Assembly (NCBI GenBank): GCA_045580325.1
Contig: JAZNNR010000023.1
Location: 6,718 to 70,717, forward strand
DNA: 64,000 nt
Reading direction: 5' to 3'
Origin: Eubacteriales bacterium
GTDB lineage: Bacteria > Bacillota > Clostridia > Oscillospirales > CAG-272
The position numbers and the translations under genes are program-made. Positions 4,074 through 45,437 of the stretch are shown one piece after another; position 1 is the first letter of the stretch, and the number at the start of each line of letters is the position of its first letter. The notes beneath the pieces are model-generated. The model searched no databases, was not told where the DNA came from, and was given only the letters and a program-made list of their open reading frames with translations.

Positions 4074-5561
4074 ATGAGCGCACATAAGAATCGCAGAAAG
4101 TCTTTCGGCAAGCTCGAAAGACCCGATAAAATTATAGAACGCGAAAAAGCAGAAAAGGCGACATTCGAGGAAACGCTTCGGGATTCTGACGAAGAGCCCG
4201 AAAAGGAAGAAGTGCCTGATAAAAACGCTTTTTACGTTGATGATACTGCCGATAAAATCGATGAAAGCGATAACAAAGAAAGCGAAAAAAACGAAGAACC
4301 CGTTTATTTCGATAACGCATACGCGCAGATGCCCGATTTCGCCGAGGTTATAGGAGTTTCCTTCAGAGGCTCGGGTAAAATGTATTATTTTGCCGCAAAT
4401 GGCTGCATAGCGAAGGACGGGGACAGCGCAATCGTTGAAACCGCGCGCGGAGTCGAGTACGGCAAGGTGGTTCTTACCAATAAAATGGTATCCAAGAAGG
4501 AACTTGTCCTTCCTCTCAAAAACGTTATTCGTATCGCAAACGAGAACGATACCGCAAGATTTGAGGAAAACAAGAAAAAGGAAGACGAAGCGTTTGAGAT
4601 CTGTCAGAAGAAGATCGTCGCACACGCTCTCGATATGAAGCTTATCGACGCTGAATATACCTTTGATAATTCCAAGCTTCTTTTCTACTTCACATCGGAC
4701 GATAGAGTTGACTTCAGAGATCTCGTGAAGGATCTTGCTTCGGTATTTAAGACAAGAATCGAGCTTCGACAAATAGGAATACGCGACGAAGCAAAGCTTA
4801 TGGGCGGACTTGGAGTCTGCGGAAGAACATTTTGCTGTCATAGCTTCCTTGCCGATTTCGTTCAGGTGTCGATAAAGATGGCAAAGGAACAAAATCTCGC
4901 ACTTAATTCGGCAAAGATCTCGGGCGCCTGCGGACGTCTTATGTGTTGCCTCAGATATGAATATGACACGTATCAGGAGGAAGCAAGACGCACTCCTAAG
5001 GTCGATAGCCGTGTTATCACTCCCGACGGAGCAGGAAAGGTTACAGAGGCGAAGCCTCTTCTCGGACTTGTCAAGGTCGCTCTTGACGATACTCCCGAAA
5101 ATGCGAAGGTCTACGATAGAAAGCTCCTTCGTCCCGAAACTCCCGAAGAGTTTAAAGCCGCGCAGGAAAAGAAGCTTCTTCGCGCGCAAAAGGAAGCGGA
5201 GATAGAGGAAAGCAGAAACGCTAAAAAAGCAAGTGCAGAGGCAAAGGCTGCGGCACTTGAAAAAACCTTTGACCGCACGGTCAGATCAAACGGCAGAGAT
5301 GAGCAGAGCAAAGAAAAACAGTCCCGCCAAAATAATGCGGCAGCAAACAGAGAAGGCAAGACTTTTTCGGGCGCAAAAAATCAGGACAGCGCTAACATAA
5401 AAGAAAATGTTAATACCGAAGCTGCCGAAAGATCCCGCGAAAATGATACCGCGACAAATAAAGAGGGTAATAAAGATGGAAATGCGAAATCGCATAAATA
5501 TCATCGCTATAACCGTTCAAGACATAAAAAATCCAAAAAAACCGATAAGCAAGACGGATAA
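4074..5561 (+). CDS. ricT: PSP1-domain protein (RicT/YaaT, stage 0 sporulation protein homolog) with long Lys/Glu/Asn-rich N- and C-terminal tails
   Basis: PSP1 core (VIGVSFRGSGKMYYF...GVCGRTFCCHSFL...CGRLMCCLRYE). Sits directly after holB, as in Bacillus. Confidence 0.85.
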   Translation: MSAHKNRRKSFGKLERPDKIIEREKAEKATFEETLRDSDEEPEKEEVPDKNAFYVDDTADKIDESDNKESEKNEEPVYFDNAYAQMPDFAEVIGVSFRGSGKMYYFAANGCIAKDGDSAIVETARGVEYGKVVLTNKMVSKKELVLPLKNVIRIANENDTARFEENKKKEDEAFEICQKKIVAHALDMKLIDAEYTFDNSKLLFYFTSDDRVDFRDLVKDLASVFKTRIELRQIGIRDEAKLMGGLGVCGRTFCCHSFLADFVQVSIKMAKEQNLALNSAKISGACGRLMCCLRYEYDTYQEEARRTPKVDSRVITPDGAGKVTEAKPLLGLVKVALDDTPENAKVYDRKLLRPETPEEFKAAQEKKLLRAQKEAEIEESRNAKKASAEAKAAALEKTFDRTVRSNGRDEQSKEKQSRQNNAAANREGKTFSGAKNQDSANIKENVNTEAAERSRENDTATNKEGNKDGNAKSHKYHRYNRSRHKKSKKTDKQDG

Positions 5562-8260: not shown

Positions 8261-8618
8261 GGGCCCGTAAAGGTTTCGACGGGGATTTTGAGGTATGATA
8301 AGCGAGTAGAGCCGGGTAAACTCTTAAACTGCCTAAATTTTAAAATTAAACGCTAACAATAACGTAGCAATGGCCGCGTAAGCGGTGCCGCTGCCATAAG
8401 GCAGCCCGCTCCTTTCGGGAGTATCACGGCCCGAAACTGAGTGTCATGCAGTGATGAACGTGAAGTGCGAGCTCGTCGTCGTAACACTCACGCATAAGAC
8501 GGCTGCCGAAGGTGTGTTTTGTTTGTCCGCACATTTTCGGGAGATCACAGACAAACTACACTCGTAGAAAGTCATATCAAGGGGTTTTCGGACGGGAGTT
8601 CGACTCTCCCCGGGTCCA
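8261..8618 (+). ncRNA. ssrA: tmRNA (SsrA)
   Basis: 5' GGGCCCGTAAAGGTTTCGACGGGG and 3' GGACGGGAGTTCGACTCTCCCCGGGTCCA. The acceptor stem has a G3:U pair. Predicted tag reading frame 8352..8381: GCT AAC AAT AAC GTA GCA ATG GCC GCG TAA, giving (A)ANNNVAMAA. CCA is not encoded. Confidence 0.9.
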
Positions 8619-8622
8619 TAAA

Positions 8623-13209: not shown

Positions 13210-13231
13210 CCCGACGATTAAGCTCGTCGGG
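13210..13231. terminator. Bidirectional hairpin between convergent genes
   Basis: cccgacg / cgtcggg stem, with T-runs on one side. Confidence 0.5.
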
Positions 13232-13256
13232 ATTAAATCTTTTCATAGGTTCTACG

Positions 13257-13586
13257 TCAATCTTCGGGTGGAATACTCGGCAGAGCGTTTCCGTTTTTAT
13301 CTCTGTTTATAGGTGTCGCCTTGAGATGAAAATGAATACTGTTGCAAGGGCATACTAAATCGATATCATACTTTTCTTCAGATCCTCTGTAAGTGAAATC
13401 TCCGCCGCAACGAATGATCTCGCAGTATGTATACACCTCTGTCATCATTTTCGGGCACATTCCGGCAGGACATTCGTACGAAAATGTGAACTTGTCGCCC
13501 TTTTCAAATCCGAGTCGGCAATTTGAAGCTTTTCTATCGATAACTGTCAGATCAAACTGCCAATCTTCTATCACCCATTTTTTCAT
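13257..13586 (-). CDS. Small Cys-rich protein, TIGR04076-like
   Basis: 109 aa. CRLGFEKGDKF...CPAGMCPKMM...CGGDF pattern recalls the TIGR04076 family. Assignment is from memory only. Confidence 0.5.
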   Translation of the reverse strand: MKKWVIEDWQFDLTVIDRKASNCRLGFEKGDKFTFSYECPAGMCPKMMTEVYTYCEIIRCGGDFTYRGSEEKYDIDLVCPCNSIHFHLKATPINRDKNGNALPSIPPED

Positions 13587-13692
13587 AGACTGTATCTCCT
13601 TTATTTTTGCTAAAGCATTTTTTTACATTATATCATAAAATTGCAGGAAAAACAATGTTTTTGCTGAACTTTATATATTTCTCTTCTTATCG

Positions 13693-13762
13693 GTAGGGGG
13701 GATTCACGAATCGCCCGAAAAAGAACTACAAATCAAACGGGCGATTCGTGAATCGCCCCTAC
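13693..13762. repeat. Long inverted repeat GTAGGGGGGATTCACGAATCGCCCG - 20 nt - CGGGCGATTCGTGAATCGCCCCTAC
   Basis: About 25-nt arms, nearly perfectly complementary. Each arm is itself a small hairpin (gggcgatt/aatcgccc). It shares the GTAGGG...CCCTAC ends with the hairpin at 8826..8855. Confidence 0.8.
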
Positions 13763-13789
13763 GTATAATCCTATTCGTGTTTAAACAAA

Positions 13790-13818
13790 AACAAGCTCCC
13801 TCACACGAGGGAGCTTTA
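13790..13818 (-). terminator. Terminator of the P-type ATPase gene
   Basis: aagctccctc-acac-gagggagctt stem-loop, followed on the minus strand by gtttttgttt. Confidence 0.7.
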
Positions 13819-13823
13819 ATTTT

Positions 13824-16463
13824 TTAATGCTTACGATTCTTTATAAATCCAAAGAGCTTTCCGAGCTCCATCACAACGAATGGTGTGAGGATAAGTGCAA
13901 GAGCGATAAGATATAGCTTTGTAGAAAGCATAACAAGACCGAATGCTTTTCCTACGGGAGTGAAGAGAACGAGCGCTACAAGTGCTGTTGACGTCAGAGC
14001 CGCAAGATTAAGCGTTTTGTTGGTGAACGGTCCGATCTTGAAGAGCGAATGCTCGGAACGCATATTGAACGCCTGAACAACCTGTGAAAGAGCAAGGACC
14101 ATAAATGCCATTGTCTGACCTGCCTCGAGAGAGCCACCCATCTTTTCGCCGAGCCAGAAGCCAACAAGGGTAAGAGCGGCGAACATACAGCCCTGAAGAA
14201 CTACGCGGATACCGAGTCCGTTTGCGAAAATGCCTTCGTTTTTGGGCTTGGGCTTTCTTTCCATAACGTCCTTTTCAACCGCTTCCATACCGAGTGCGAT
14301 AGCGGGAAGAGAGTCTGTTACGAGGTTTATCCAAAGGAGCTGCATAGAGAGAAGGGGAGTCTTGTGCCAGAGAAGCATCGCAACAAATACCGTAATAACC
14401 TCTCCGATGTTCGTTCCGAGAAGGAATCCGACGACCTTCTTGATGTTTGCGTAGATTCCGCGTCCTTCGCGTACCGCTTCAACGATGGTCGCAAAGTTGT
14501 CGTCTGTAAGAGTCATATCTGCCGCGCCCTTAGCAACGTCTGTACCCGTGATACCCATCGCACAGCCGATGTCTGCGGCTTTAAGTGCAGGAGCATCGTT
14601 TACACCGTCGCCTGTCATAGACACGACCTGGCCTTTTCTCTGCCAAGCCTTGACTATACGTATCTTGTTTTCGGGAGAAACTCGCGCGTAGACCGAGATG
14701 CTTTCAACCGCTTCGTCAAGCTCGCTGTCTGTCATAGCGTCAAGCTGAGCACCTGTGATAGCGCGGTCACCGTCGAGAAGTATTCCAAGCTCTTTTGCGA
14801 TAGCTGATGCTGTAACGACGTGGTCGCCCGTGATCATAACAGGCTTGATACCTGCCTTGCGGCAGACCTCAACAGCTGCCTTTGCTTCAGGACGGGGCGG
14901 GTCGATCATACCGACAAGACCCATAAATGTAAGTCCGTTTTCGAGATCCTCTGACGTAGGATTTTCGGGAACTGTGTCAATTTCCTTGTAAGCAACGGCA
15001 AGAACACGAAGCGCATCCTCACTCATTTTGTTGACCATATTTTTAGCCGTTTCGAGATCGCCCGAAATACAGCGGGGAACCATCATATCGAAAGCACCCT
15101 TGACGATAACGATATTCTTTCCGTCGATGTTGTTGACTGTCGTCATAAGCTTTCGGTCGGAGTCAAAGGGAATTTCTGCAAGTCGGGGATACGTTTTGTT
15201 CAGCTCGTCCTTGGGCATCGAGTTTTTGTGAGCGGCAAGAACGATAGCCGTTTCTGTCGGGTCGCCAATGTGCTGCTCCTCGTCGCCGCGGAATATTACC
15301 GATCCGTCGCAGCAGAGAGTAGCGTATTTGAGAAGCTTTCTTATTTCTTCAGAGTTCTCTCGGCTGATAAGCTCGGGCTCGGACGCGCCGTCGATATATG
15401 CCTTTGTGAGAGTCATTCTGTTCTGTGTGAGAGTACCTGTCTTATCCGAGCAGATTATAGATGCGCTGCCGAGTGTTTCAACGGCAGGAAGACGTCTGAT
15501 AAGAGCGTTACGCTTTACCATACGCTGAACACCGATAGAAAGAACGATAGTTACGATAGCCGGAAGACCCTCGGGAATTGCCGAAACTGCAAGAGAAACG
15601 GCAGTCATAAAGATCTCAAGCGGCGGAATCTTGTTTACAAGACCGACCACGAATATTATAGCGCACGCGGCAAGAGCAACGATACCGAGGTATTTGCCGA
15701 GCTGTGCAAGCTTCTGCTGAAGGGGTGTCTGACCTTCGTTTTCGCTGTCGAGAAGGTTGGCTATCTTACCCATTTCGGTGTCCATTCCCGTAGCCGTTAC
15801 TACCGCGATGGCAGTACCGTAGGTTACGCTGCAACCCGAGAATACCATATTTGTGCGGTCGCCGATAGGAGCTTTTTCGTCAACTGTGATCTCAGCGTCC
15901 TTTTCAGAGGGAACAGATTCACCCGTGAGTGCCGATTCCTCGGATTTGAGGCTCACGCTGTGAAGAAGACGCGCGTCGGCAGGGATGAAGTCGCCCGCTT
16001 CGAGCTTGATAATATCGCCGGGAACAAGCTCGGAGGCCTCGATCACCTTTTCCTCGCCGTCGCGGATAACTCGCGCGTGCGGAGCTGACATATTTTTCAG
16101 CGCGTCAAGAGCTTTTTCGGCTTTGCTTTCCTGCATAACGCCCATAACGGCGTTGAGTATAACGATAAGAAGAATGAGAGCAGGCTCGAAAAGCTCGCCC
16201 CAATTCTGCTCGACGCAAACGATTACGAATGATACGATAGCGGCAACGATAAGAATAAGGATCATTACGTCCTTGAACTGATCGAAGAATCGCTGAAGCG
16301 TAGTCTTTTTCTTCTTTTCGCGAAGCTTGTTAGGACCGTACTTTTCCTGAAGCTCGGACACCTGTGCAGAGCTTAGACCGGTCTTAACGTCAGAAGCAAG
16401 AGAGCTCAAAACGTCATCTTTTGATTTGTTGTGAAATAGCAATTGATTTTCCTCCATAAGCAA
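13824..16463 (-). CDS. P-type Ca2+-transporting ATPase (P2-type, PMCA/SERCA-like)
   Basis: DKTGTLT phosphorylation motif, plus TGES, MITGDH, GDGVNDAPALK and PEGLP (TM4). 879 aa. Confidence 0.9.
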   Translation of the reverse strand: MLMEENQLLFHNKSKDDVLSSLASDVKTGLSSAQVSELQEKYGPNKLREKKKKTTLQRFFDQFKDVMILILIVAAIVSFVIVCVEQNWGELFEPALILLIVILNAVMGVMQESKAEKALDALKNMSAPHARVIRDGEEKVIEASELVPGDIIKLEAGDFIPADARLLHSVSLKSEESALTGESVPSEKDAEITVDEKAPIGDRTNMVFSGCSVTYGTAIAVVTATGMDTEMGKIANLLDSENEGQTPLQQKLAQLGKYLGIVALAACAIIFVVGLVNKIPPLEIFMTAVSLAVSAIPEGLPAIVTIVLSIGVQRMVKRNALIRRLPAVETLGSASIICSDKTGTLTQNRMTLTKAYIDGASEPELISRENSEEIRKLLKYATLCCDGSVIFRGDEEQHIGDPTETAIVLAAHKNSMPKDELNKTYPRLAEIPFDSDRKLMTTVNNIDGKNIVIVKGAFDMMVPRCISGDLETAKNMVNKMSEDALRVLAVAYKEIDTVPENPTSEDLENGLTFMGLVGMIDPPRPEAKAAVEVCRKAGIKPVMITGDHVVTASAIAKELGILLDGDRAITGAQLDAMTDSELDEAVESISVYARVSPENKIRIVKAWQRKGQVVSMTGDGVNDAPALKAADIGCAMGITGTDVAKGAADMTLTDDNFATIVEAVREGRGIYANIKKVVGFLLGTNIGEVITVFVAMLLWHKTPLLSMQLLWINLVTDSLPAIALGMEAVEKDVMERKPKPKNEGIFANGLGIRVVLQGCMFAALTLVGFWLGEKMGGSLEAGQTMAFMVLALSQVVQAFNMRSEHSLFKIGPFTNKTLNLAALTSTALVALVLFTPVGKAFGLVMLSTKLYLIALALILTPFVVMELGKLFGFIKNRKH

Positions 16464-16600: not shown

Positions 16601-18976
16601 TTAGTTTATCTCTGCCACCTTGTCTGTGATACCAAACTCGTCAGCAATTATCTTAACCCAGTTTTTCATCACTTCCCAGCTTGCCTTGCCTGTGAAAGCG
16701 TGGTTCTTGTATTCGCGCTCGCCGTCGCTCCAGCTTATTATCCAAAGCTCGGACTCTTCGCTGTTGTATATACGCTGAATAAGGGCGGAGGAGTTCTTTT
16801 CCTGTGATACTGTTCCTACGGCAAGCGTTTTGCTGTTTCCGCTCTTGTCGTAAGCCTTTACGCTGTAAGTGATCTTTTTCTCACTGCGCGTATCGTTAAG
16901 AGCGTAAAGCGCCATTTTGCCGTCAATTTCCGTGCGGACAGCCGCGAGAAGAAGCTCCTGATGGGATTTTTCTATCCAGAAGTAAGGAAGCTTCGGACCG
17001 AGCTTATAGTCCATAGCCGAATAGTTGAACGCCATGGGCCACATATCGCAAAGCGACCACCAGAGAACGCCCGTCTTGTTCCATCTTACCGTTCTGGAGT
17101 ACTCGATAGCGTCCTTGTAGCCTTCTGCGCAGAGAAGGTTTACAGCAAGAGCATATTCTTTCCACTCGTCAAGTGTGAAATCACGTCCGAAGAAGTGCTC
17201 GCATTCAAACTTTCCTGCGTTTCTCCAAACTGTGAAATATCCATCATTCTGATGTGTTCCGTTACTGTCAAGTCTTGGCGAGTCCCAAAGACGCTCCATT
17301 CTTGATTTTTCTCTCTCAAACGTAGCTTTGTCATTAGATATAGCGCAAAGCGGTCCGGGAGCGATCTCGCTGAATATCTTGTTTTTTGACTCTCGAAGTG
17401 CCTTGCCGAACATATGCGGAGCAACGTAGAAGTGAAGCTCTGTCGGAGAGAAAACACCCTTGTCGGTGTGAACGAGGAAGGTCGATTCATCTCTCCACGT
17501 CCATCTTGTATGACGGCTGCCGTGGAAACGGTCGGAGGACACGGGAGAGCTGTGTATGTAAGGGCGGTAAGGGTCGAATCTTACCACGATGTCGGGAATT
17601 ATCTTGCGTGTGATCGCTACCTGCGAGGGAAGTATCTGCGAGGTGGGCTGTACCCATTCCACACACTTGTCGCATTCATTATCTCCGCACCAGAGCGCAA
17701 GACAGGTGTGATTACGGTATTTTTTAACCACCTGCTCGGCTTCCTTTGCAACGAGCTTTCCGTATTCCTCGTTCATTGAGGGAATTTCACAAGCGAACAT
17801 AAAGTCCTGCCATACCATAATTCCGTGTGCGTCGCAGTAGTCGAAGAAGGATTTGTCCTCGTATATGCCGACACCCAAAACTCTTACAAAGTTACAGTGG
17901 AGGTTTGACATTTCTTTAAGCGCATCGAGTGTTTTTGTCTTTTTGTCTGCTTCGCTTGCAAACGGATCGCGGGGCTTCCAGCCCGTACCGCGTAAAAATA
18001 CGTTTTCGCCGTTGACTCTGAAGAGAAACTCACCTGTTCCGTCCTCGTTTATATCGTCGGTGTGTATTACGTCAATCGTGCGGATACCGTATTTCTGGGT
18101 GTAAAGAGCAACGCACTCTTCGCCCTCAAGCATTTCGATTTTCAGATCGTAAAGCTTCGGATTACCGAAGCCGCTCGGCCACCAAAGCTCTATTTTACTG
18201 CGCTCTACGCCGAATTTTACAAGTCCCTGGACGAATCTTGCAGGGAATATCGTGCTGTTTATAACCTCATCGCCATCGAGAAGAGATACGCGCAGACGGT
18301 GATCTGTGAGGACCTTTACGGGTGTTTTGTAAATATAAGAGATACCGAGTATTGCGTAATCGTCGTATAGCTCGTTTGTATAAACGTACATTTCCTCAAA
18401 ACGCTTCGGAGGGAGATCTTCGATATATACGTCGCGGATTATTCCCGACGTAATGATACGAGGAGCGTTATCCCAACCCCACTGAAGACGGTTTTTTCTG
18501 ACGTTTATAAATCCGTCGTAATGACCTTGGAAAAAGAGCGGTCTGCTGAACTCGTCGTGAGGATTTTCGCGCGCCCAAAGGTCAACGCTTCTGATAATAA
18601 CCTTAAGCTCGTTTCCTGTGGGCTTAAGATCGACCGCAAAGCGGTATGACATATGCATATTTTCGGTATTTCCGAGCTTTTCACCGTTAAGATAGACCTC
18701 TGCAAGAGTGTCTATGCCTTCAAACACGAGATTTCTCGTATATCCCTTGGGAAGCTCGGGCGCATCGAATACTGTCGTATACGTCCAGTCGTCAACGGTT
18801 TCGAATTTTGCGGTTGCAAATTCATAATCTGCGGGCATGTAGTCGTCGCAGAGCCCCATCTGCTGAAGGGTAGGTTCAACGTTGCTCGGAACGGGAATTT
18901 CGGTATTATAGGATTTCTCGTCAAGTGTAAAGTCAAGATTCCAAACGCCGTTTAAAGAGAAAATTTTCTTATCCAT
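16601..18976 (-). CDS. Glycoside hydrolase family 2, beta-mannosidase-like (paralog A), no signal peptide
   Basis: FEGIDTLAEVYLNGEKLG, GIMVWQDFMFAC and LALWCGDNE (acid/base Glu context) are typical of GH2 beta-mannosidases. 791 aa. Confidence 0.8.
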   Translation of the reverse strand: MDKKIFSLNGVWNLDFTLDEKSYNTEIPVPSNVEPTLQQMGLCDDYMPADYEFATAKFETVDDWTYTTVFDAPELPKGYTRNLVFEGIDTLAEVYLNGEKLGNTENMHMSYRFAVDLKPTGNELKVIIRSVDLWARENPHDEFSRPLFFQGHYDGFINVRKNRLQWGWDNAPRIITSGIIRDVYIEDLPPKRFEEMYVYTNELYDDYAILGISYIYKTPVKVLTDHRLRVSLLDGDEVINSTIFPARFVQGLVKFGVERSKIELWWPSGFGNPKLYDLKIEMLEGEECVALYTQKYGIRTIDVIHTDDINEDGTGEFLFRVNGENVFLRGTGWKPRDPFASEADKKTKTLDALKEMSNLHCNFVRVLGVGIYEDKSFFDYCDAHGIMVWQDFMFACEIPSMNEEYGKLVAKEAEQVVKKYRNHTCLALWCGDNECDKCVEWVQPTSQILPSQVAITRKIIPDIVVRFDPYRPYIHSSPVSSDRFHGSRHTRWTWRDESTFLVHTDKGVFSPTELHFYVAPHMFGKALRESKNKIFSEIAPGPLCAISNDKATFEREKSRMERLWDSPRLDSNGTHQNDGYFTVWRNAGKFECEHFFGRDFTLDEWKEYALAVNLLCAEGYKDAIEYSRTVRWNKTGVLWWSLCDMWPMAFNYSAMDYKLGPKLPYFWIEKSHQELLLAAVRTEIDGKMALYALNDTRSEKKITYSVKAYDKSGNSKTLAVGTVSQEKNSSALIQRIYNSEESELWIISWSDGEREYKNHAFTGKASWEVMKNWVKIIADEFGITDKVAEIN

Positions 18977-19080: not shown

Positions 19081-21456
19081 TTATTTCAGCTCAAGAACCT
19101 TATCCGTAATACCAAACTCGTCAGCAATGATCTTAACCCAGTTTTTCATCACTTCCCAGCTTGCCTTGCCTGTGAAAGCGTGGTTTTTGTACTCGCGCTC
19201 GCCGTCGCTCCAGCTTATTATCCAAAGCTCAGACTCCTCGCAGTTGTATATGCGCTGTACGAGAGAAGAAGAGTTCTTTTCCTGCGATACAGTTCCCGTA
19301 GCAAGCGTTCTGCTCTTGCCGCTCTGATCGTAAGCCTTTACGCTGTACGTGATCTTCTTATCACAAAGCGTATCGTTAAGAGCATATACAGACATTTCGC
19401 CGCCTGCCGTTGTTCTTACGGCAGCAAGGGCAAATTCCTGCTGTGATTTTTCTATCCAGAAGTAGGGAAGCTTGGGATCGAGCTTATAGTCCATAACCGA
19501 ATAGTTGAACGCCATGGGCCACATATCGCAGAGCGACCACCAGATAACGCCCGTCTTGTCCCATCTTACCGTTCTGCAGTATTCGATAGCGTCCTTGTAG
19601 CTTTCTGCGCAGATAAGGTTTATTGCAAGCGTGTAGTCCTTCCACTCGTCAAAGGAAAAATCGCGTCCGAAGAAGTGCATACACTGATTTTTGCCCGTGT
19701 TTCTCCAAGCGGTGAAATATCCGTCGTTCTGATGTGTGAAGTTGCTGTCGAGCCAAGGGCTGTCCCAAAGACGCTCCATTCTTGACTTTTCTTTGTCATA
19801 AGCGTACTCGCTGTTTGAGATCGAGCAGATCGGACCGGGCGCGATCTCGCCGAACATTCTGTTTTTTGCTCCGCGAAGCGCCCACTCAAACGCGTCGGGA
19901 GTAACGTAGAAGTGAAGCTCTGACGGGGAAATTATACCCTTGTCTGTCTTTACCGTAAAGGTGCGCTCGTCCTTTTCCTTGCCGCTTACCTGACGGTCTA
20001 TGTGGATTATATCGGGTGTTATGGGCGAGCTGTCAAGATAGAAGCGGTAGGGGTCAAATCTTACTACGATATTAGGAAGGATCTTACGTGTGATAGCTAC
20101 CTGAGAGGGAAGTATCTTAGAGAGGGGCTGTACCCACTCAATACATCTGTCAGCCTCGTTGTCGCCGCACCAAAGTGCAAGACAGGTGTAGTTGCGGTAT
20201 TTTTTGATTATCTGCTCGGCTTCTTTTGCAACGAGTCTGCCGTACTCTTCGTCCATTGAAGGAATTTCACAAGCGAACATAAAGTCCTGCCATACCATAA
20301 TTCCGTGAGCGTCGCAGTAGTCGAAGAACGCCTTGTCCTCGTACATACCGCCGCCCCAGATCCTTACCATATTGCAATTGAGCTTTGTAATCTCACTCAG
20401 CGCGGCAAGAGATCTCGTTTTCTTGTCTGCCTCGCTTGTAAAGGGATCAAGCGGCTTCCAGCTTGTACCGCGCAAAAATACCTTTTCGCCGTTTACCTTG
20501 AATATAAATTCGCCTTTTCCGTCCTCGTCTATCATCGCGGTATGCTCTATGTTTATCACACGAAGACCGATCTTCTGCGTGTAAAGTGCAACGCTTTCGC
20601 CGTCCTCGAGCATTTCGATTTTGAGATCGTAAAGCCTCGGATCACCAAATCCGCTCGGCCACCAAAGCTCTACCTTGTGGCGCGGGATTCCGAACATTAC
20701 AAAGCCCTGAACGAAAACGGCATTGTAGTCGGTACGCTCAACGAGTCTGTCGCCGTCGAAAAGGGATACGCGCAGAGTGTGGTTTGTGAGGAGCTTTGTA
20801 GGTGTCTGATACTGATAGCCAACGCTAACAACTACGTAGTCGTCGCGCACGTCGTTTGTATAAACGTACATATCCTCAAAGCGCTTCGGGGGAAGGTCCT
20901 CAATATATACGTCGCGGATTATACCCGTGGTAATGATACGCGGAGCGTTGTCCCAGCCCCAGTGATGACGTGTCTTTCTTATGTTTACCTGTGAATCGAA
21001 ATGACCCTTAAGGCTCTGCGGTCTGCTGAACTGATCGTGAGGGTGCTTGCGCGCCCAAAGATCAATACTGCGGATAACGACCTTGAGCTCGTTCCCTACG
21101 GGTCTGAGATCTACCTCGTAGCGATAGGTCATATGCATATCCTCGGTATTTCCGAGCTTTTCGCCGTTGAGATATATCTCGGCAAGAGTGTCTATACCTT
21201 CAAATACGAGATTTCTCGTATAACCCGCAGGAAGCTCGGGTGCGTCGAATACAGTTGTGTACGTCCAGTCGTCAACAGTTTCGAATTTTGCTGTTACAAA
21301 GTTGTGCTCGGCGGGCATATAGTCGTCGCAAAGTCCCATTTCCTTGAGAGTGGGCTCGACGTTGCTCGGCACGTGGACTGTTGTGTTGTACGCTTTGTCA
21401 TCGAGTGTGAAATCGAGATTCCAGGTGCCGTTTAATGAGTGAATCCTTTTATCCAT
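19081..21456 (-). CDS. Glycoside hydrolase family 2, beta-mannosidase-like (paralog B), no signal peptide
   Basis: Same length (791 aa) as paralog A and colinear with it. Has IWGGGMYED, GIMVWQDFMFAC and WCGDNE motifs. Confidence 0.8.
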   Translation of the reverse strand: MDKRIHSLNGTWNLDFTLDDKAYNTTVHVPSNVEPTLKEMGLCDDYMPAEHNFVTAKFETVDDWTYTTVFDAPELPAGYTRNLVFEGIDTLAEIYLNGEKLGNTEDMHMTYRYEVDLRPVGNELKVVIRSIDLWARKHPHDQFSRPQSLKGHFDSQVNIRKTRHHWGWDNAPRIITTGIIRDVYIEDLPPKRFEDMYVYTNDVRDDYVVVSVGYQYQTPTKLLTNHTLRVSLFDGDRLVERTDYNAVFVQGFVMFGIPRHKVELWWPSGFGDPRLYDLKIEMLEDGESVALYTQKIGLRVINIEHTAMIDEDGKGEFIFKVNGEKVFLRGTSWKPLDPFTSEADKKTRSLAALSEITKLNCNMVRIWGGGMYEDKAFFDYCDAHGIMVWQDFMFACEIPSMDEEYGRLVAKEAEQIIKKYRNYTCLALWCGDNEADRCIEWVQPLSKILPSQVAITRKILPNIVVRFDPYRFYLDSSPITPDIIHIDRQVSGKEKDERTFTVKTDKGIISPSELHFYVTPDAFEWALRGAKNRMFGEIAPGPICSISNSEYAYDKEKSRMERLWDSPWLDSNFTHQNDGYFTAWRNTGKNQCMHFFGRDFSFDEWKDYTLAINLICAESYKDAIEYCRTVRWDKTGVIWWSLCDMWPMAFNYSVMDYKLDPKLPYFWIEKSQQEFALAAVRTTAGGEMSVYALNDTLCDKKITYSVKAYDQSGKSRTLATGTVSQEKNSSSLVQRIYNCEESELWIISWSDGEREYKNHAFTGKASWEVMKNWVKIIADEFGITDKVLELK

Positions 21457-24952: not shown

Positions 24953-24953
24953 A

Positions 24954-25025
24954 CACCCGCAACAGGAATCGAACCTGTAACTATCCCTTAGGAGGGGATT
25001 GTTATATCCATTTAACTATGCAGGC
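24954..25025 (-). tRNA. tRNA-Arg (anticodon CCT)
   Basis: The reverse complement folds as GCCTGCA-TA-GTTA-AATGGATA-TAAC-A-ATCCC-CTCCTAA-GGGAT-AGTT-ACAGG-TTCGATT-CCTGT-TGCGGGT-G. That is 72 nt, a cloverleaf with two G:U pairs in the acceptor stem. CCA is not encoded. Confidence 0.85.
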
Positions 25026-25247
25026 AAATATAAAATACTACATAACTATAACACAAAACGGGCGCGTTTTCAAGGGCTTTTTGCATTTTTCAAGAATTTT
25101 TTGTTTAAAACATTTATTAAATGCCTGTTAAATGTTTGAAAATTCGGAGTTTTGGTGTTATTTTACTATTGAATTTTTTTTTATAATGGTATATAATAAA
25201 TCAGTTATGAAAACTCGGTTCATTTTAATTATGCAGGAGGTGTGCTT

Positions 25248-26399
25248 ATGTCTTTTCTCAAAGGATTTATTCCGTCGCTGATAATATCGTTTTTGGCGTT
25301 CTCGCTGATAATACTGTACGGCGGCTCGTTTGCTCTTTCGCTTATAGAAGAAAAGGAAAATAATATTTTGGACGATGACGACATAAGCGGAATAATATCA
25401 AATAACGGCACGTCTGTAAACACAGTACAGGACACCTTCTCGTTTGCACTTGTAATAACCGATGATATTCCTCAAAACGAAGAGGACGAAGGGGACGAAG
25501 AGGACTCGGATACAGAAAACGGCGAAAACGGCGAAAACGCTGAAAACGGCGAAGGTACAGACACCGACACCGATACAGATATGGGCACGGACACAGAAAC
25601 TGACACCGACACAGATACAGATACAGATACAGATACAGACAATTCGCAAACCCCCGGATTTGTGCAGGATTTTGAAAATATACTCGCCGGCGATGCTGTA
25701 AAGATCAGAAGCGAAATCAAGTTTATATGTGTTGTTCATATAAATAAGACGGCAGGGAAATCCTTTATTACTGTAATACCAGGAAACAGTATTGCAAAAA
25801 TCGGCGGAGTTGAGATGTCTCTTTCTCACGCTTTGTACTTTGCAGATACGGGACTGCTCGGAGAAGAGGACTTTATTTCTGCCACTGTTGTTGCAAGCAC
25901 AGGAATTATTCCCGATTTTTACGGAAACGTGGATATTGACGATTTCGTAGCACTCGCTGACATTCTCGGCGACCTCAAATATGATAATGAGTACAGAATC
26001 ACAACAGAGCTTGAAGATGAAAATGAAAAGGTAACAGTTCCTATCGGAACGGTAGAACTTACGGGAGAAACCTTAAAAGCGCTTCTCACGTATGAAGAAT
26101 ATCCCGATAAAAACATTCCCTATCAGGTACTTATAGACATTTCGCAGACAATGCTTGACAGTATATGTAAGCAGTTTAAGCCCAATATTATATCGAAGGT
26201 CAGAAGTATGCTTAAATATGTTGAAACTGACTTTACAGCAAGCGATATGAATAGAGTTTCATCGGTGTTTTTCAGCTATGAGGACTCGCAAAAGACTGCT
26301 TTGCCTCTGCTAGGCGGCCATGAAAAAATAAACGACGCGTTTCTTTTCCGTATAAACAGTACGGCAAGCGTAAAGAAATTCAAAGAGTTTTTAAATTAA
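25248..26399 (+). CDS. Membrane-anchored hypothetical protein with an acidic ENG/TD repeat linker
   Basis: AGGAGG SD 8 nt before the ATG at 25248. N-terminal TM helix, a low-complexity segment (EDEGDEEDSDTENGENGENAENGEGTDTDTD...), then a globular domain of about 250 aa. Family not recognised. Confidence 0.6.
   Translation: MSFLKGFIPSLIISFLAFSLIILYGGSFALSLIEEKENNILDDDDISGIISNNGTSVNTVQDTFSFALVITDDIPQNEEDEGDEEDSDTENGENGENAENGEGTDTDTDTDMGTDTETDTDTDTDTDTDTDNSQTPGFVQDFENILAGDAVKIRSEIKFICVVHINKTAGKSFITVIPGNSIAKIGGVEMSLSHALYFADTGLLGEEDFISATVVASTGIIPDFYGNVDIDDFVALADILGDLKYDNEYRITTELEDENEKVTVPIGTVELTGETLKALLTYEEYPDKNIPYQVLIDISQTMLDSICKQFKPNIISKVRSMLKYVETDFTASDMNRVSSVFFSYEDSQKTALPLLGGHEKINDAFLFRINSTASVKKFKEFLN
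25514..25640 (+). repeat. In-frame tandem repeats (9-nt gaaaacggc x about 4, then GAYACN hexamers x about 14)
   Basis: gaaaacggcgaaaacggcgaaaacgctgaaaacggc, followed by acagacaccgacaccgatacagat...gatacagatacagatacagatacagac. Confidence 0.85.
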
Positions 26400-27829: not shown

Positions 27830-27850
27830 TTAGAATATTTTGTGATGATA

Positions 27851-27897
27851 CAAATTTCGGCAGAGGGATTGCTTCCTCTGCCGATTTGTGTTATAAT
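27851..27897 (+). repeat. Hairpin+promoter repeat, copy A
   Basis: caaatTTCGGCAGAGGgattgcttCCTCTGCCGAtttgtgtTATAAT. Stem 27857..27865 / 27876..27884. TTGCTT (27869..27874) sits in the loop, then a 17-nt spacer and TATAAT at 27892..27897. Confidence 0.85.
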
Positions 27898-27904
27898 GGG
27901 ATTA

Positions 27905-28075
27905 ATGAAAAGCCTTCCTCCGCGAGGAAGGGGGACCACGAAGTGGTGGAAGGAGTTTTCGATATTCATAAACTCCCTCAGTCGCCTTCGGCGACAGCTC
28001 CCTCAAGAGGGAGCCTTATATTCGCGCAACTTAAGGTGTATGGCTTTGCTCTCTCTGTTTGTATCAAGAGGGTGA
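27905..28075. repeat. Three consecutive GC-rich mini-hairpins in the leader of the GNAT gene
   Basis: ccttcctc-cgc-gaggaagg, gtcgcc-ttc-ggcgac and ctccct-caag-agggag. The small ORFs 27842..28075 and 27886..28089 there are not credible. Confidence 0.65.
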
Positions 28076-28129
28076 AAGCTGCACTATGAAACGGAACAAT
28101 AAATAAGAATTTAACAAGGGTGTATTACT

Positions 28130-28558
28130 TTGGCAGAGATATTATATAAGTATTTGTTACGAGAAAAAAGTGAGATTGATTCTTCACTTTGCATAAAATG
28201 GTTAAGCAAAGAAGAACTTTATGTATTTAACGATCACTTAGAATTGTGTGGCCAAACAGCAATCGATAGCACTAAGTGGTGCAGAATTTTCGGAGAAGGA
28301 ACTATATATGCCGGTTTGTTTGTTGATTCTAGGATGGTAGCACGAGCTTGTGTTGAAAAGTATTCAAATGAAGCGTGGGAAATAGCCGACGTTAGAGTAG
28401 CGCGTGAGTTTCGTAATAAAGGATTGGCCTATAATGTGTGTTTATATGTTTTGGACTATATCCTAAAAAACAAAAGAACCCCAACCATTAGAACCGAAGA
28501 GGATAACTATCCTATGCAAAAAGTTATTTTAAAATTGGGGTTTACTTCTGAAATATAA
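28130..28558 (+). CDS. GNAT-family N-acetyltransferase (start uncertain)
   Basis: ARACVEKYSNEAWEIADVRVAREFRNKGLAYNV is an acetyl-CoA-binding motif A-like R/Q-x-x-G-x-A. AT-rich. TTG start with only a weak SD. Confidence 0.7.
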   Translation: MAEILYKYLLREKSEIDSSLCIKWLSKEELYVFNDHLELCGQTAIDSTKWCRIFGEGTIYAGLFVDSRMVARACVEKYSNEAWEIADVRVAREFRNKGLAYNVCLYVLDYILKNKRTPTIRTEEDNYPMQKVILKLGFTSEI

Positions 28559-28610: not shown

Positions 28611-28650
28611 ACAAACACCAACAGATTTTAAAATCTGTCGGTGTTTTACT
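28611..28650. repeat. Cassette-closing hairpin T1 (terminator-like), same family as 45404..45437
   Basis: caccaacagatt-ttaa-aatctgtcggtg followed by ttttactt. It ends about 10 nt from the stop codon of the convergent nifS-like gene. Confidence 0.8.
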
Positions 28651-32759: not shown

Positions 32760-32915
32760 GGCACAAAGATAAGCGCCAGACCGTCTGAAAGGCGGTTGAC
32801 GAGGTGGAAGAAGAATCGAGATGTTCGGCGGATGTCTTCCCGCGTGTTCCGACGCGTACATAGACAGTAAAAACAGGGGTAACCGTGCAACAAAGGGTCT
32901 ATGACGGAGTTTTGA
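32760..32915 (+). promoter_or_regulatory. glmS ribozyme (GlcN6P-responsive riboswitch)
   Basis: AAGCGCCAGA...GACGAGGTGGAAGAAGAATCGAGATGTTCGGCGGATGTCTTCCCG matches the conserved glmS core (A/GCGCC cleavage site at 32772/32773; GACGAGG; UUCGGCGGAUG). Lies directly upstream of glmS. Confidence 0.85.
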
Positions 32916-38113: not shown

Positions 38114-38125
38114 GCATAATGTTTA

Positions 38126-38172
38126 CAAATTTCGGCAGAGATATTGATTCTCTGCCGATTTTGTGGTATGAT
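38126..38172 (+). repeat. Hairpin+promoter repeat, copy B
   Basis: caaatTTCGGCAGAGatattgattCTCTGCCGAttttgtggTATGAT. Stem 38132..38140 / 38150..38158. TTGATT at 38144..38149, 17-nt spacer, -10 at 38167..38172. Confidence 0.85.
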
Positions 38173-38203
38173 GGGATAAATAGGACGGAACTTTGGAGGT
38201 AAA

Positions 38204-38806
38204 ATGGCAAATTTAATAGTAATATGCGGACCTCAGGCGGTTGGAAAGATGACTGTCGCGGAAAGTGTAAGAGATAAGCTTAAATATAATCTTATGATGA
38301 ATCACGACAGTATTGAGGTGTCCGATAAAATCTTTGGCTTTGGAACGCCCGCCCAAAAGGAGTTTAATACACTTTTCAGAGAAAAAGCCTTTGAAATAGC
38401 GGTGAAACATAACGTTGACCTGTTATTTACTTTTGTCTGTGCGTTTGACGTTCCGCAGCAAAGAGAATATCTGAACGGTCTTGCCGATATGTTTGAATCA
38501 AACGGTGGAAATTTCTATTTTGTTGAACTCAGCGCAGATCTTGAAACAAGGCTTGCGAGAAACGAAACGCCTCACCGAATGGAGAGAAAGGCTTCCAAAA
38601 AGGACGTAGAATGGAGCAGAGCCAACCTTCTCAGAGATGCAGAGAGGTATCGACTCAATTCAGATCCCGATGAGGTCTGGTTTGAAAATCACATTAAAAT
38701 TGATAATACAAATCTTACTCCCAACGAGGTTGCCGACATTATCATCAGCGCCTTTAATCTGACTGCCAATGATAAAGAAGAATGGGAATACCGTTTTGGA
38801 GTGTAA
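38204..38806 (+). CDS. P-loop NTPase/kinase (shikimate-kinase-like AAA family)
   Basis: LIVICGPQAVGKMTV Walker A. 200 aa. GGAGG SD. Confidence 0.65.
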   Translation: MANLIVICGPQAVGKMTVAESVRDKLKYNLMMNHDSIEVSDKIFGFGTPAQKEFNTLFREKAFEIAVKHNVDLLFTFVCAFDVPQQREYLNGLADMFESNGGNFYFVELSADLETRLARNETPHRMERKASKKDVEWSRANLLRDAERYRLNSDPDEVWFENHIKIDNTNLTPNEVADIIISAFNLTANDKEEWEYRFGV

Positions 38807-38821
38807 ATGGCTTGATTTGGA

Positions 38822-38868
38822 TAAATTTCGGCAGAGATATTGATTCTCTGCCGATTTTGTGGTATAAT
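38822..38868 (+). repeat. Hairpin+promoter repeat, copy C
   Basis: taaatTTCGGCAGAGatattgattCTCTGCCGAttttgtggTATAAT. Differs from copy B at about 2 positions. TTGATT at 38840..38845, 17-nt spacer, TATAAT at 38863..38868. Confidence 0.85.
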
Positions 38869-38943
38869 GTGGTTCGCGCGGCGCGTTTGTTATACAAAAG
38901 CGAAACCCGAGAAAAGAATAGAATCACATAGGAGGCAATTAAA

Positions 38944-39180
38944 ATGATATACTACAAGGTTTTTCATAGCTATAAACTGATAGACCATTTTGAACGCAAG
39001 GATATTGGAATATACAGCTCTATATCGAATGCTGAAAAAGCAGTAGAATTATTAAAGGTTAAAAATGGGTTCAAAGATACTATTTCTGGATTTAAAATAA
39101 AAAAGGTCTTTCGACTTTTCAAACCAAAACTTTTAGACAGAACCTTTTGGATAGATGGGTTCGTTACATATACGTATTAA
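38944..39180 (+). CDS. Hypothetical small protein (78 aa)
   Basis: AT-rich ORF with an AGGAGG SD. No family recognised. Confidence 0.5.
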   Translation: MIYYKVFHSYKLIDHFERKDIGIYSSISNAEKAVELLKVKNGFKDTISGFKIKKVFRLFKPKLLDRTFWIDGFVTYTY

Positions 39181-39188
39181 AGAGGATA

Positions 39189-39210
39189 ACCCGACAGAAA
39201 ACTGTCGGGT
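39189..39210. repeat. Cassette-closing hairpin T3 (short version)
   Basis: acccgacag-aaaa-ctgtcgggt followed by atttattt. It ends 18 nt from the stop of the convergent lipoprotein gene. Confidence 0.7.
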
Positions 39211-41680: not shown

Positions 41681-41954
41681 GACCATACCGGCCGGGGAGT
41701 TAGCGGTGCCTTGTACCTGCAATCCGCTACAGCAGGGGTTATTTCCGCTCTTGAGGGCAGAGTGGGTGTGGTCAGCACCGATCGCTTTGCGTGTTGAAGA
41801 ATGGGTCCTGTGCAACTAATGGCTGTGAACCATGTCAGGTGGGAGACCAAGCAGCATTAAGCAGTATCACTTAGTGTGCCACGGGCTCGCCTGTTCGGAG
41901 CGCAGACATCGGAAAGCGCATGTTCGTTTCTGCTCGATTTTGCGGTGTATGGTC
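41681..41954 (+). ncRNA. ffs: Signal recognition particle RNA, long Bacillus type (scRNA)
   Basis: GGGGAGTTAGCGGTGCCTTGTACCTGCAATCCGCTACAGCAGGGG (Alu domain) and CATGTCAGGTGGGAGACCAAGCAGCATTAAG (domain IV) closely parallel B. subtilis scRNA. The 5' gaccatacc pairs with the 3' ggtgtatggtc. Position upstream of dnaX is conserved. Confidence 0.85.
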
Positions 41955-44750: not shown

Positions 44751-44776
44751 AAATACGCTTTTAGTATGAATATTTG

Positions 44777-44823
44777 CAAATTTCGGCAGAGATATTGTTT
44801 TCTCTGCCGATTTGTGTTATAAT
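44777..44823 (+). repeat. Hairpin+promoter repeat, copy D
   Basis: caaatTTCGGCAGAGatattgttttCTCTGCCGAtttgtgtTATAAT. Stem 44783..44791 / 44802..44810. TTGTTT at 44795..44800, 17-nt spacer, TATAAT at 44818..44823. Confidence 0.85.
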
Positions 44824-44854
44824 GTAAAAAAGAAACGATAATTTGGAGATAACT

Positions 44855-45142
44855 ATGGCAAGCAGTAAAGAATATATAGAGCTTATTTTGGAGGAGTGCG
44901 GCGGTCTTTCTGCTCGTGCAATGATGGGCGAATACCTGCTGTACTACGGTGGTAAGATTGTCGGTGGTGTTTATGATAACCGTTTGCTTGTTAAACCCAC
45001 GAGGTCGGCAGCTTCACTGATGCCAAATGCACCAAGAGAGCTTCCGTACGAAGGAGCAAGGGAAATGCTTCTTGTGGAAAATATTGAAGATAAGGATTTT
45101 CTAAAGAAATTGTTCGAAGCTATGTATGACGAGCTTCCCTAA
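44855..45142 (+). CDS. TfoX N-terminal-domain protein
   Basis: 95 aa. ...ARAMMGEYLLYYGGKIVGGVYDNRLLVK... is the TfoX_N pattern. GGAG SD 6 nt upstream. Confidence 0.65.
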   Translation: MASSKEYIELILEECGGLSARAMMGEYLLYYGGKIVGGVYDNRLLVKPTRSAASLMPNAPRELPYEGAREMLLVENIEDKDFLKKLFEAMYDELP

Positions 45143-45185
45143 CCGAAGAAAAAGAAATAACAATAATTAAACGGAGAATACAGAA

Positions 45186-45395
45186 ATGAAGCAATACGAA
45201 TACAAATTTGTAGAAATCAAAAGAGAAATAGGAATGAAGGTTAAAAGAGGCGAAACCTTCGAAAAATGCAAGCAAGTGATCACGGAAGAGGCGCAGCAGG
45301 GTTGGAGATTAAAGCAGATCGTAGCTCCGTTTGACGAAAAATCAAGCACATACTACGCATACGCTTATCAGATTATTTTTGAAAGAGAAATATAA
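45186..45395 (+). CDS. DUF4177-domain small protein
   Basis: MKQYEYKFVEI...GWRLKQIV is typical of DUF4177. 69 aa. Confidence 0.65.
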   Translation: MKQYEYKFVEIKREIGMKVKRGETFEKCKQVITEEAQQGWRLKQIVAPFDEKSSTYYAYAYQIIFEREI

Positions 45396-45403
45396 GCTAA
45401 ATA

Positions 45404-45437
45404 AAAACCGACAGATCTTAAAATCTGTCGGTTTTTT
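45404..45437. repeat. Cassette-closing hairpin T4 (terminator-like), same family as 28611..28650
   Basis: aaaaccgacagat-cttaaa-atctgtcggtttt then ttactt. It ends 3 nt from the ftsH stop codon. Confidence 0.8.

Follow-up and report, generated by a model that had tools for sequence, protein, structure and literature searches.

Small accessory genes in a 64,000-nt stretch of DNA from an Eubacteriales bacterium (CAG-272, Oscillospirales; GenBank assembly GCA_045580325.1, contig JAZNNR010000023.1, positions 6,718 to 70,717 of the forward strand; hereafter the window) are framed by a 47-nt repeat hairpin, which we name LE, and a closing hairpin, which we name RE. We consider it probable that these LE/RE units are cargo cassettes derived from the gene unit (REPtron or TIRtron) of a REP-associated tyrosine transposase (RAYT; REP, repetitive extragenic palindrome), in which LE is the 5' boundary, RE is the close and the cargo has been swapped in. 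The anatomy of the units, the directional pairing of LE with RE, the diversity of the cargo, presence and absence between strains, the location in split terminators, the linkage to RAYT genes and the occurrence of one unit in unrelated contexts are all directly observed. That a RAYT, acting in trans on hairpins of single-stranded DNA, moves the units is a more tentative proposal.

The finding centres on an array in which an ABC ATPase gene is followed by LE copy B, a gene for a 200-aa P-loop protein, LE copy C, a 78-aa open reading frame (ORF), RE and a convergent gene for a 168-aa lipoprotein, an order that the first-pass annotation of this DNA had given and that the sequence confirms. The 47-mer is found at 38127-38173 (copy B, with one mismatch, TATGAT for TATAAT) and at 38823-38869 (copy C, without mismatch), and it finds no match in 100 shuffles. 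Copies B and C differ at one of the 47 positions, within the -10 element, and not at about two as that annotation had estimated; with the diverged left flank of about 13 nt they are identical at 53 of 60 positions. Two further copies that it had placed at 27851 (A) and 44777 (D) are real, copy A lying between glyQS and a GNAT gene and copy D between recR and genes for TfoX_N and DUF4177 proteins. The four copies (27851, 38127, 38823 and 44777), all on the plus strand and with exact arms, are far above the chance expectation of 0, and repeat finding groups B and C with 27839-27898 and 44765-44824. Common to all four is TTTCGGCAGAG ... CTCTGCCGATTT; relative to B and C, copies A and D have a loop longer by one nt and a T-run shorter by one, so that the -35/-10 spacing is still 17 bp. 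The cargo genes, earlier described as AT-richer than their neighbours, do have a GC content of 30-44%, compared to 45-51% in the adjacent genes.

LE looks like an intrinsic terminator fused to a near-consensus promoter of the sigma-70 type, an activity that we predict from its sequence features. Its fold consists of an A-tract, a G+C-rich stem of 9-10 bp, a predicted loop of 4-8 nt (the conserved 9-nt arms being 9-10 nt apart) and a U-tract, and the fold energies of the window's hairpins lie between -20 and -29 kcal/mol (z-scores between -5 and -8). A conserved ACAAA 5' of LE pairs with the U-run and lies inside the unit. In a consensus scan, copies B and C are terminator-like on the plus strand (10-bp stem with six G-C pairs, tail TTTTGTGG) and also promoter-like (TTGATT-17-TATAAT/TATGAT, TG-extended). 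The -35 element (TTGnTT) sits in the loop, the 3' arm and T-run make up the 17-bp spacer, and TGn-TATAAT follows, a layout that matches the usual promoters of the organism (repeat family D6 in repeat finding). In copy B (38114-38173, plus strand) the hairpin TCGGCAGAG/CTCTGCCGA occupies 38132-38158 (RNA fold -22.5 kcal/mol, z = -6.9), with the -35 TTGATT at 38144-38149 in the loop, a 17-bp spacer and the TG-extended -10 TATGAT at 38167-38172; a remnant of a left terminal module, TATAAGCATAATGTTTACAAA, lies at 38114-38129. Copy C (38810-38869, plus strand) has its hairpin at 38828-38854, its -35 at 38840-38845 and its -10 TATAAT at 38863-38868. The repeat, described earlier as a hairpin plus promoter, thus looks like an ordinary terminator joined to a promoter, a point that had been only half stated.

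The array is closed by RE at 39189-39210 (ACCCGACAG AAAA CTGTCGGGT), which had been recognised from its CCGACAG motif and is bidirectionally terminator-like. The RE consensus hairpin, CCGACAGA..TCTGTCGG / CCCGACAGA..TCTGTCGGG, ends all three arrays of the window (28616-28643, 39189-39210 and 45408-45431), and no further hairpin of the CCGACAG type was found in the window. By fold and consensus scan, RE hairpins in general resemble bidirectional terminators.

Related loci were collected by scanning one genome per species for LE arms, which gave at least 118 stretches (776 kb), almost all from uncultured Clostridia of the animal gut labelled Oscillospiraceae, Acutalibacteraceae, “Eubacteriales” or similar. 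In these loci the -10 element is present in 94 of 108 cases and the spacer is 17 bp in 83 of 84; the LE loop is 10 nt long in 91 and 9 nt in 14, with the length of the T-run compensating. RE hairpins number only 32 in the 776 kb; downstream of LE, at up to 1.5 kb, one is present in 23 of 62 loci, compared to one of 93 loci upstream. Compensated variants of the RE arms occur (CCAACAG/CTGTTGG and CTGACAG/CTGTCAG). The interval from LE to RE spans 390-1190 nt and holds one to three small ORFs, whose Pfam families are mutually unrelated (GNAT, AAA_33, DUF559, DUF6487, SF0329, Peptidase_S51, HTH_3, DUF4304, DUF4177 and TfoX_N), and many of the cargo proteins have no Pfam match. Homologues of the window's P-loop kinase gene with 73-85% identity stand in many unrelated contexts in which the repeat is absent: of 80 metagenome loci with kinase relatives, not one has it. 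The repeat is therefore no attribute of this gene, which the metagenome loci show only to be widespread as an accessory gene.

In many copies a structured leader replaces the RAYT gene described below. At least 28 of the 118 listed loci (for example L007, L020, L043 and L056) have it after LE; it is about 200-240 nt long and is modelled by RNAalifold with six helices and 42 predicted pairs, 18 of which show compensatory changes. The arm CTCCCTC/GAGGGAG is common to three of the helices and changes in concert between loci, which suggests alternative pairings. With its length of about 240 nt, the leader is a candidate for a hitherto undescribed RNA element; LE, the leader and RE have no families in Rfam. 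The leader ends in a hairpin module, M5, that also lies downstream of RAYT genes. Copy A of the window is among the copies with the leader, while M5 is degenerate in copy C and only traces of it are seen in B and D. Neither LE nor the leader was found in plasmid collections, and the LE pattern was not found in viral contigs. A fecal contig labelled “Bacteriophage sp.” (MT836505.1, 9260-9308) is 90% identical to 47 nt of the leader (window 27971-28017), the sole hit outside chromosomal contigs.

The link to RAYTs comes from the first gene after LE. In 21 of the 118 listed loci this gene, starting 18-20 nt past LE, encodes a RAYT-like Y1/HUH transposase of about 175 aa, the type of enzyme that had been suggested as worth looking for from the window alone. 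It carries the motifs YVIMPNHIHLL, IWQ and YIYENP, the last being the class-2 signature Y---NP. Its best NCBIfam match is REP_Tyr_transpos (NF047646) at 65-73 bits, below the cut-off of 80; against Pfam Y1_Tnp it scores 26 bits and passes in one of two cases tested; and the closest solved structure is 4ER8, the TnpAREP of E. coli (E = 7e-7). Some of its 4087 homologues are called RayT by JGI. The coding sequences themselves hold two inverted GTAG-tagged REPs about 190 nt apart, read in frame as ..NVGAIIDRPEN.. and ..DGRPMVAPT.., in L046 (about 4700-5200, reverse complement), L019, L025, L039, L042, L059, L079, L098, L101, L102, L107, L109 and L114. In L042, L046, L213 and L214 the gene is also flanked by GTAG-tagged REPs in inverted orientation. 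Past its stop codon the M5 hairpin (GCCTTTGTAATACAAAGGC) is conserved, frequently with a single accessory gene and RE after it. Within a single species the RAYT gene stands at one same locus in six of six contigs (L207-L212). Across the 118 listed loci the Y1 transposase is the only recurrent enzyme gene in the LE frame, in a survey that included no search aimed at integrases. The density of GTAG heads is 0.25 per kb in these loci, which are a biased sample since they were selected for LE, and the same REP family is present in the window as one doublet (13693-13762).

Complete units extend beyond LE and RE to terminal inverted repeats of about 20-40 nt, which are of two kinds: an M1 type (..TTAGGCTSSTTCTCATAAGGATGTTTAC..), seen in 13 units, and a second type (..TGCAnnnTTAGCGGAGAAAT..), seen in 10. 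GTAG REP doublets are frequent between these repeats and LE or RE, and units bearing a RAYT gene share the same ends (L214, L079, L042 and L114). Directly outside the terminal repeats, 20 of 23 units have a further inverted repeat that is specific to the locus, consisting of an A-run and an arm of 8-12 nt. Its median length in units of the M1 type is 14 nt, compared to 7 nt in a cross-locus control, and 11 of 13 are above the 95th percentile of that control; it is present in 9 of 10 units of the second type. In our reading, each outer repeat is a bidirectional terminator of the host whose loop has been split. No tetranucleotide target conserved between units was found. The sequence ACACCGCAGGA around the unit of L046 was considered as part of a long terminal repeat and rejected, as the cross-locus control assigns it to the locus-specific target sequence. 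A 902-nt unit with the terminal repeat TGCAnnnTTAGCGGAGAAAT is 98.2% identical in L043 and L116, from two species, between flanks that are unrelated even by tblastx. In L043 (reverse complement, about 440-1380) this unit lies inside a palindrome, AAAAAATAGCGGAG..CTCCGCTATTTTTT, the arms of which share the core TAGCGGAG with the inverted repeat of the unit itself, an arrangement that suggests either that the unit is nested within a solo pair of repeats or that look-alike targets are preferred.

Strain-level variation was followed in close relatives, that is, contigs carrying the exact RecR or YbaB protein of the window and 94-98% identical to it. Three of them, L215 (the contig of L119), L216 and L217, at about 95% identity, have the ABC ATPase gene, one LE, the 78-aa ORF, RE and the lipoprotein gene. 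Compared to these, the window has a 696-nt indel comprising the kinase gene and one LE, which is exactly one period, with both boundaries inside the repeat. With the kinase absent from three strains and present in one, the simpler reading is a gain in the strain of the window. Copies B and C have left flanks that agree at only 9 of 16 positions, too diverged for a local duplication, so that the incoming segment would have carried an LE of its own. As a crossover marker for this gain, the G/A polymorphism in the -10 element was considered and rejected, both alleles segregating among the strains with a single LE.

The region 3' of recR (window 44751-45433) is a second variable site, a hot spot with three alleles between flanks that are 97-98% identical. 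In L120 and L121 there is a plain intact terminator, AAAAAATCCACCC-GAGA-GGGTGGATTTTT, and window positions 44755-45433 are absent. The window and L215 carry unit D (LE D, TfoX_N, DUF4177 and RE), the indel running from 44755 to about 45433. In L203, L204, L216 and L217, AAAAAATCCACCCGA is followed immediately by an M1 end, which belongs to a different unit inserted in the loop of the terminator. The empty terminator of L120 and L121, set against the filled one of L203, L204, L216 and L217, supports the reading of the outer repeats as split terminators. Together with the 696-nt indel of one period, the absence of the whole recR unit from relatives with flanks 97-98% identical bears out the earlier suggestion that genes are present or absent as cassettes bounded by the repeats. 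The L203 allele was at one point taken for an inverted unit with a hybrid RE/LE recombination junction; the common module order instead makes it a unit in forward orientation whose LE is a variant. About 250 nt past recR several contigs break off, probably at the repeat, and contigs with a filled site end inside the unit.

The following course of events would fit the cassette reading. The frame would originate from a class-2 RAYT gene unit, with one to three unrelated small genes substituting for the RAYT in other copies. LE would halt transcription running in from the upstream core operon and initiate it anew for the cargo, and RE would terminate transcription of the unit. By inserting in the loops of host terminators, units would preserve the upstream operon and supply a new terminator. 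The units of the window would be trimmed copies of complete ones, and a recombination event at a resident LE, for which homologous and enzyme-catalysed joining are both considered, would have added a segment of kinase plus LE and so produced the tandem of B, kinase and C.

A number of observations weigh against this interpretation or against parts of it. All related sequences are metagenome assemblies. No RAYT-like gene was found in the window (best tblastn E = 0.39), where no general search for integrases or recombinases was made. The units of the window retain left-end remnants only, the right-hand inverted repeat and the GTAG REPs being absent, and they may no longer be mobile. At recR, unit D replaces the resident terminator and does not split its loop, and ordinary homologous recombination between stretches of 47 identical bases would account equally well for the indel between B and C. 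RAYTs are known to require a GTAG tag, which neither LE nor RE carries, and LE has a low copy number, unlike classical REPs; the possibility that LE is itself a high-copy REP was discarded, as only two extra LE copies occur in the 776 kb when palindromic self-hits are excluded. The RAYTs adjacent to LE are just 30-56% identical to the query RAYT while LE is invariant, which argues against co-evolution of RAYT and LE, and another conserved factor could read LE. In another species, a RAYT gene whose product is 68% identical keeps the promoter and an M5-like hairpin while the canonical LE stem and RE are absent, indicating that LE is specific to a sub-lineage and not universal in this RAYT family; next to a RAYT that is 76% identical, RE and the REPs are kept and the LE hairpin is absent.

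Several of these points are what would be expected if there were no dedicated machinery, and well-adapted LE and RE elements had simply arrived with horizontally acquired genes, the indels being homologous and the RAYT a passenger. This would account for indel boundaries inside 47 identical bases at B and C, for the replacement rather than clean insertion at recR, for the low copy number of LE and a kinase common elsewhere without the repeat, and for the absence of LE from plasmid and viral collections. We nevertheless regard it as unlikely, because 21 of the 118 listed copies have a RAYT gene at a constant distance of 18-20 nt, far more than a random passenger would show, and because units with defined ends, 20 of 23 of them in locus-specific terminator loops, are not produced by recombination between homologous flanks. 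The empty and filled recR sites also place the insertion in the loop, and a unit that is 98% identical stands between unrelated flanks.

LE might alternatively be the operator of a conserved dimeric regulator governing a regulon of accessory and RAYT genes, in which case its recurrence would come from regulation and not from mobility. The inverted repeat of 9-N9/10-9 across the -35 has an architecture like that of the CIRCE/HrcA operator, the palindrome overlaps the -35 and spacer in the classic position for a repressor, and the arm sequence is invariant in more than 100 loci of many species while the RAYTs fall to 30% identity to the query. However, the distance between the arms ranges between 8 and 11 nt, a variation that is offset only relative to the promoter, and compensated variants of the inner stem (L046, CGGCAGGGGA/TCCCCTGCCG; copy A, GAGG/CCTC) point to a hairpin rather than to fixed half-sites. 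An operator also leaves RE, the terminal repeats, the split terminators, the identical unit elsewhere and the strain indels unexplained. As the sole explanation it seems to us a distinctly weak candidate, but the cassette reading is compatible with an additional role of LE as an operator.

An integron-like array, in which the repeats are attC-type sites for a tyrosine integrase encoded elsewhere, shares with our loci the tandem order, the gain of one gene with one repeat, the hairpin-forming sites and the small, diverse, strain-variable cargo, but is very improbable, as the repeat lies 5' of each gene and bears a promoter, the GTTRRRY/RYYYAAC core is absent from the 47-mer, a single tandem LE-LE array occurs among all loci, and the recurrent enzyme of the frame is Y1/HUH. 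The integron-like organisation suggested by the first-pass annotation is accordingly set aside; integron cassettes also differ from the present units in that here the 5' repeat combines promoter and terminator and the units are scattered behind core operons.

The closest known relatives of the cassettes are REPtrons and the REP/REPIN-RAYT systems (Nunvar 2010, PMC2817692; Bertels & Rainey 2011, PMC3116915; Ton-Hoang 2012; Quentin 2018, PMC6006769). REPtrons have a class-2 TnpA_Y1, the type to which the enzyme described here belongs by its motifs (HuH NHIH, WQ, Y---NP), with inverted GTAG-tagged flanking palindromes as here, and for subclass 2.4 PMC6006769 gives two REPs inside the RAYT coding sequence, as found here. 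They differ in that the LE..RE frame recurs without a RAYT and with unrelated cargo, that LE and RE are untagged and that LE is low-copy. TIRtrons or TIRYTs (Di Nocera 2013, PMC3733652) are RAYT-like genes inside terminal inverted repeats that also form small repeat families; shared ends of this kind are seen in L214, L079, L042 and L114, although the repeat sequences differ from the published GGGGWSAS type. Cargo-bearing derivatives, REPs with cargo or a promoter of their own, a fused terminator and promoter, and terminator-loop targets are not described in the portions of PMC2817692, PMC3733652 and PMC6006769 that were available, and our literature searches found no prior description of an LE/RE cassette system.

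The resemblance to IS200/IS605 elements and their palindrome-associated transposable elements (PATEs), which had been proposed for the window, holds for the presence of a Y1/HUH enzyme and for the hairpins near both ends; it fails for the type of that enzyme, by its motifs a class-2 RAYT, and for the terminal inverted repeats. The RAYT-like enzyme described here scores 19.4 bits on NF033573, where the cut-off is 55, and has Y---NP, not Y---Q; the units carry 20-40-nt inverted repeats and cargo genes, whereas PATEs have no cargo. The left-end hairpin of IS200 is reportedly a terminator against read-in transcription, a result attributed to Beuzon and Casadesus. MIC231 of Bacillus cereus and the Correia elements of Neisseria are non-autonomous inverted-repeat units that carry a passenger gene or promoter and alter the expression of neighbours. 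Mobile insertion cassettes of this kind, promoter-bearing miniature inverted-repeat transposable elements and “promoter reuse” (PMC3575422) offer similar non-autonomous units. They differ from the present ones in that the putative mobiliser here is a Y1 and not a DDE enzyme, and in that terminator and promoter are fused in one hairpin. IS1397 and ISKpn1, of the IS3 family, insert in the loops of REP palindromes. Insertion in a loop is common to both, but the targets here are ordinary, locus-specific bidirectional terminators and not REPs.

The units of the window can be described as follows. In the central array, cargo gene 1 (38204-38806, plus strand) encodes the 200-aa P-loop kinase-like protein, with a weak match to AAA_33. 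Copy C is followed by a degenerate 3' module M5 (38870-38917, plus strand; ..GTTTGTTATACAAAAGCGAAACCCGAGAAAAG) and by cargo gene 2, the 78-aa ORF (38944-39180, plus strand), which has 30% GC and no Pfam match and is found in L215-L217. In unit A, LE (27849-27898, plus strand) begins 21 nt past the glyQS stop codon, with its hairpin at 27857-27884 (-29.3 kcal/mol) and its -10 TATAAT at 27892-27897. The structured leader (M4-M5; 27898-28125, plus strand) fills the approximately 230 nt up to the gene for a 142-aa GNAT acetyltransferase (28130-28558, plus strand, 35% GC), and the RE-type hairpin at 28616-28643 (CACCAACAGAT TTTAAA ATCTGTCGGTG) has one mismatch. Unit D consists of LE (44765-44824, plus strand) with a degenerate left terminal module CTTTTAGTATGAATATTTGCAAA, hairpin 44783-44810 and -10 at 44818-44823, genes for the TfoX_N protein (44855-45142) and the DUF4177 protein (45186-45395), both on the plus strand, and RE at 45408-45431 (CCGACAGATCTTAAAATCTGTCGG). 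A fifth, decayed unit lies on the minus strand at 13210-13762. It begins with the GTAG-tagged REP doublet (REPIN-like; 13762-13738 and 13716-13693), preceded by a terminator (region 13210-13830), and continues with an LE remnant whose arms are decayed and whose promoter is intact (-35 at 13655-13650, -10 at 13632-13627, spacer 17), a 109-aa Cys-rich ORF (13586-13257) and an RE-like hairpin at 13231-13210 (CCCGACGAGCTTAATCGTCGGG). The kinase, the 78-aa ORF, the DUF4177, GNAT and lipoprotein products have no exact match in protein collections.

Elsewhere in the window there are a tmRNA with the tag ANNNVAMAA (8261-8621), a tRNA-Arg(CCT) (24953-25026), a glmS ribozyme upstream of glmS (32761-32913) and a large signal recognition particle RNA just upstream of dnaX (41683-41952), ordinary housekeeping RNAs which indicate a chromosomal context of Firmicutes type. 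Two tandem 791-aa ORFs on the minus strand (16601-18976 and 19081-21456), with a period of 2480 nt and 69-85% nucleotide identity in blocks, are a tandem gene duplication. The ORF at 25242-26399 contains short in-frame periodic repeats at 25500-25650 (9-nt AAAACGGCG-like and 6/12-nt ACAGAT-like), corresponding to a low-complexity acidic, Thr-rich linker region.

The LE/RE units may, though we put this forward with reserve, represent an undescribed class of mobile cassette in uncultured, Oscillospirales-like gut Clostridia, characterised by homing to terminator loops, stacking of LE, swapping of cargo and a single-copy RAYT acting in trans. Because such cassettes would come with LE and RE of their own, their insertion would leave neighbouring genes undisturbed. 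As a predicted terminator and strong promoter within about 47 nt, LE would be a compact natural insulator that could aid the genetics of gut anaerobes that are hard to engineer. If the class is real, it would amount to an integron-like shuttle of accessory genes run by a “domesticated” REP transposase, and units in terminator loops would explain how small accessory genes land so tidily behind core operons. RAYTs are widespread, single-copy and viewed as domesticated, and their sole known substrates are the short REP/REPIN palindromes. A cargo-bearing, strain-variable frame of RAYT type in terminator loops would give them a concrete role in gene flux.

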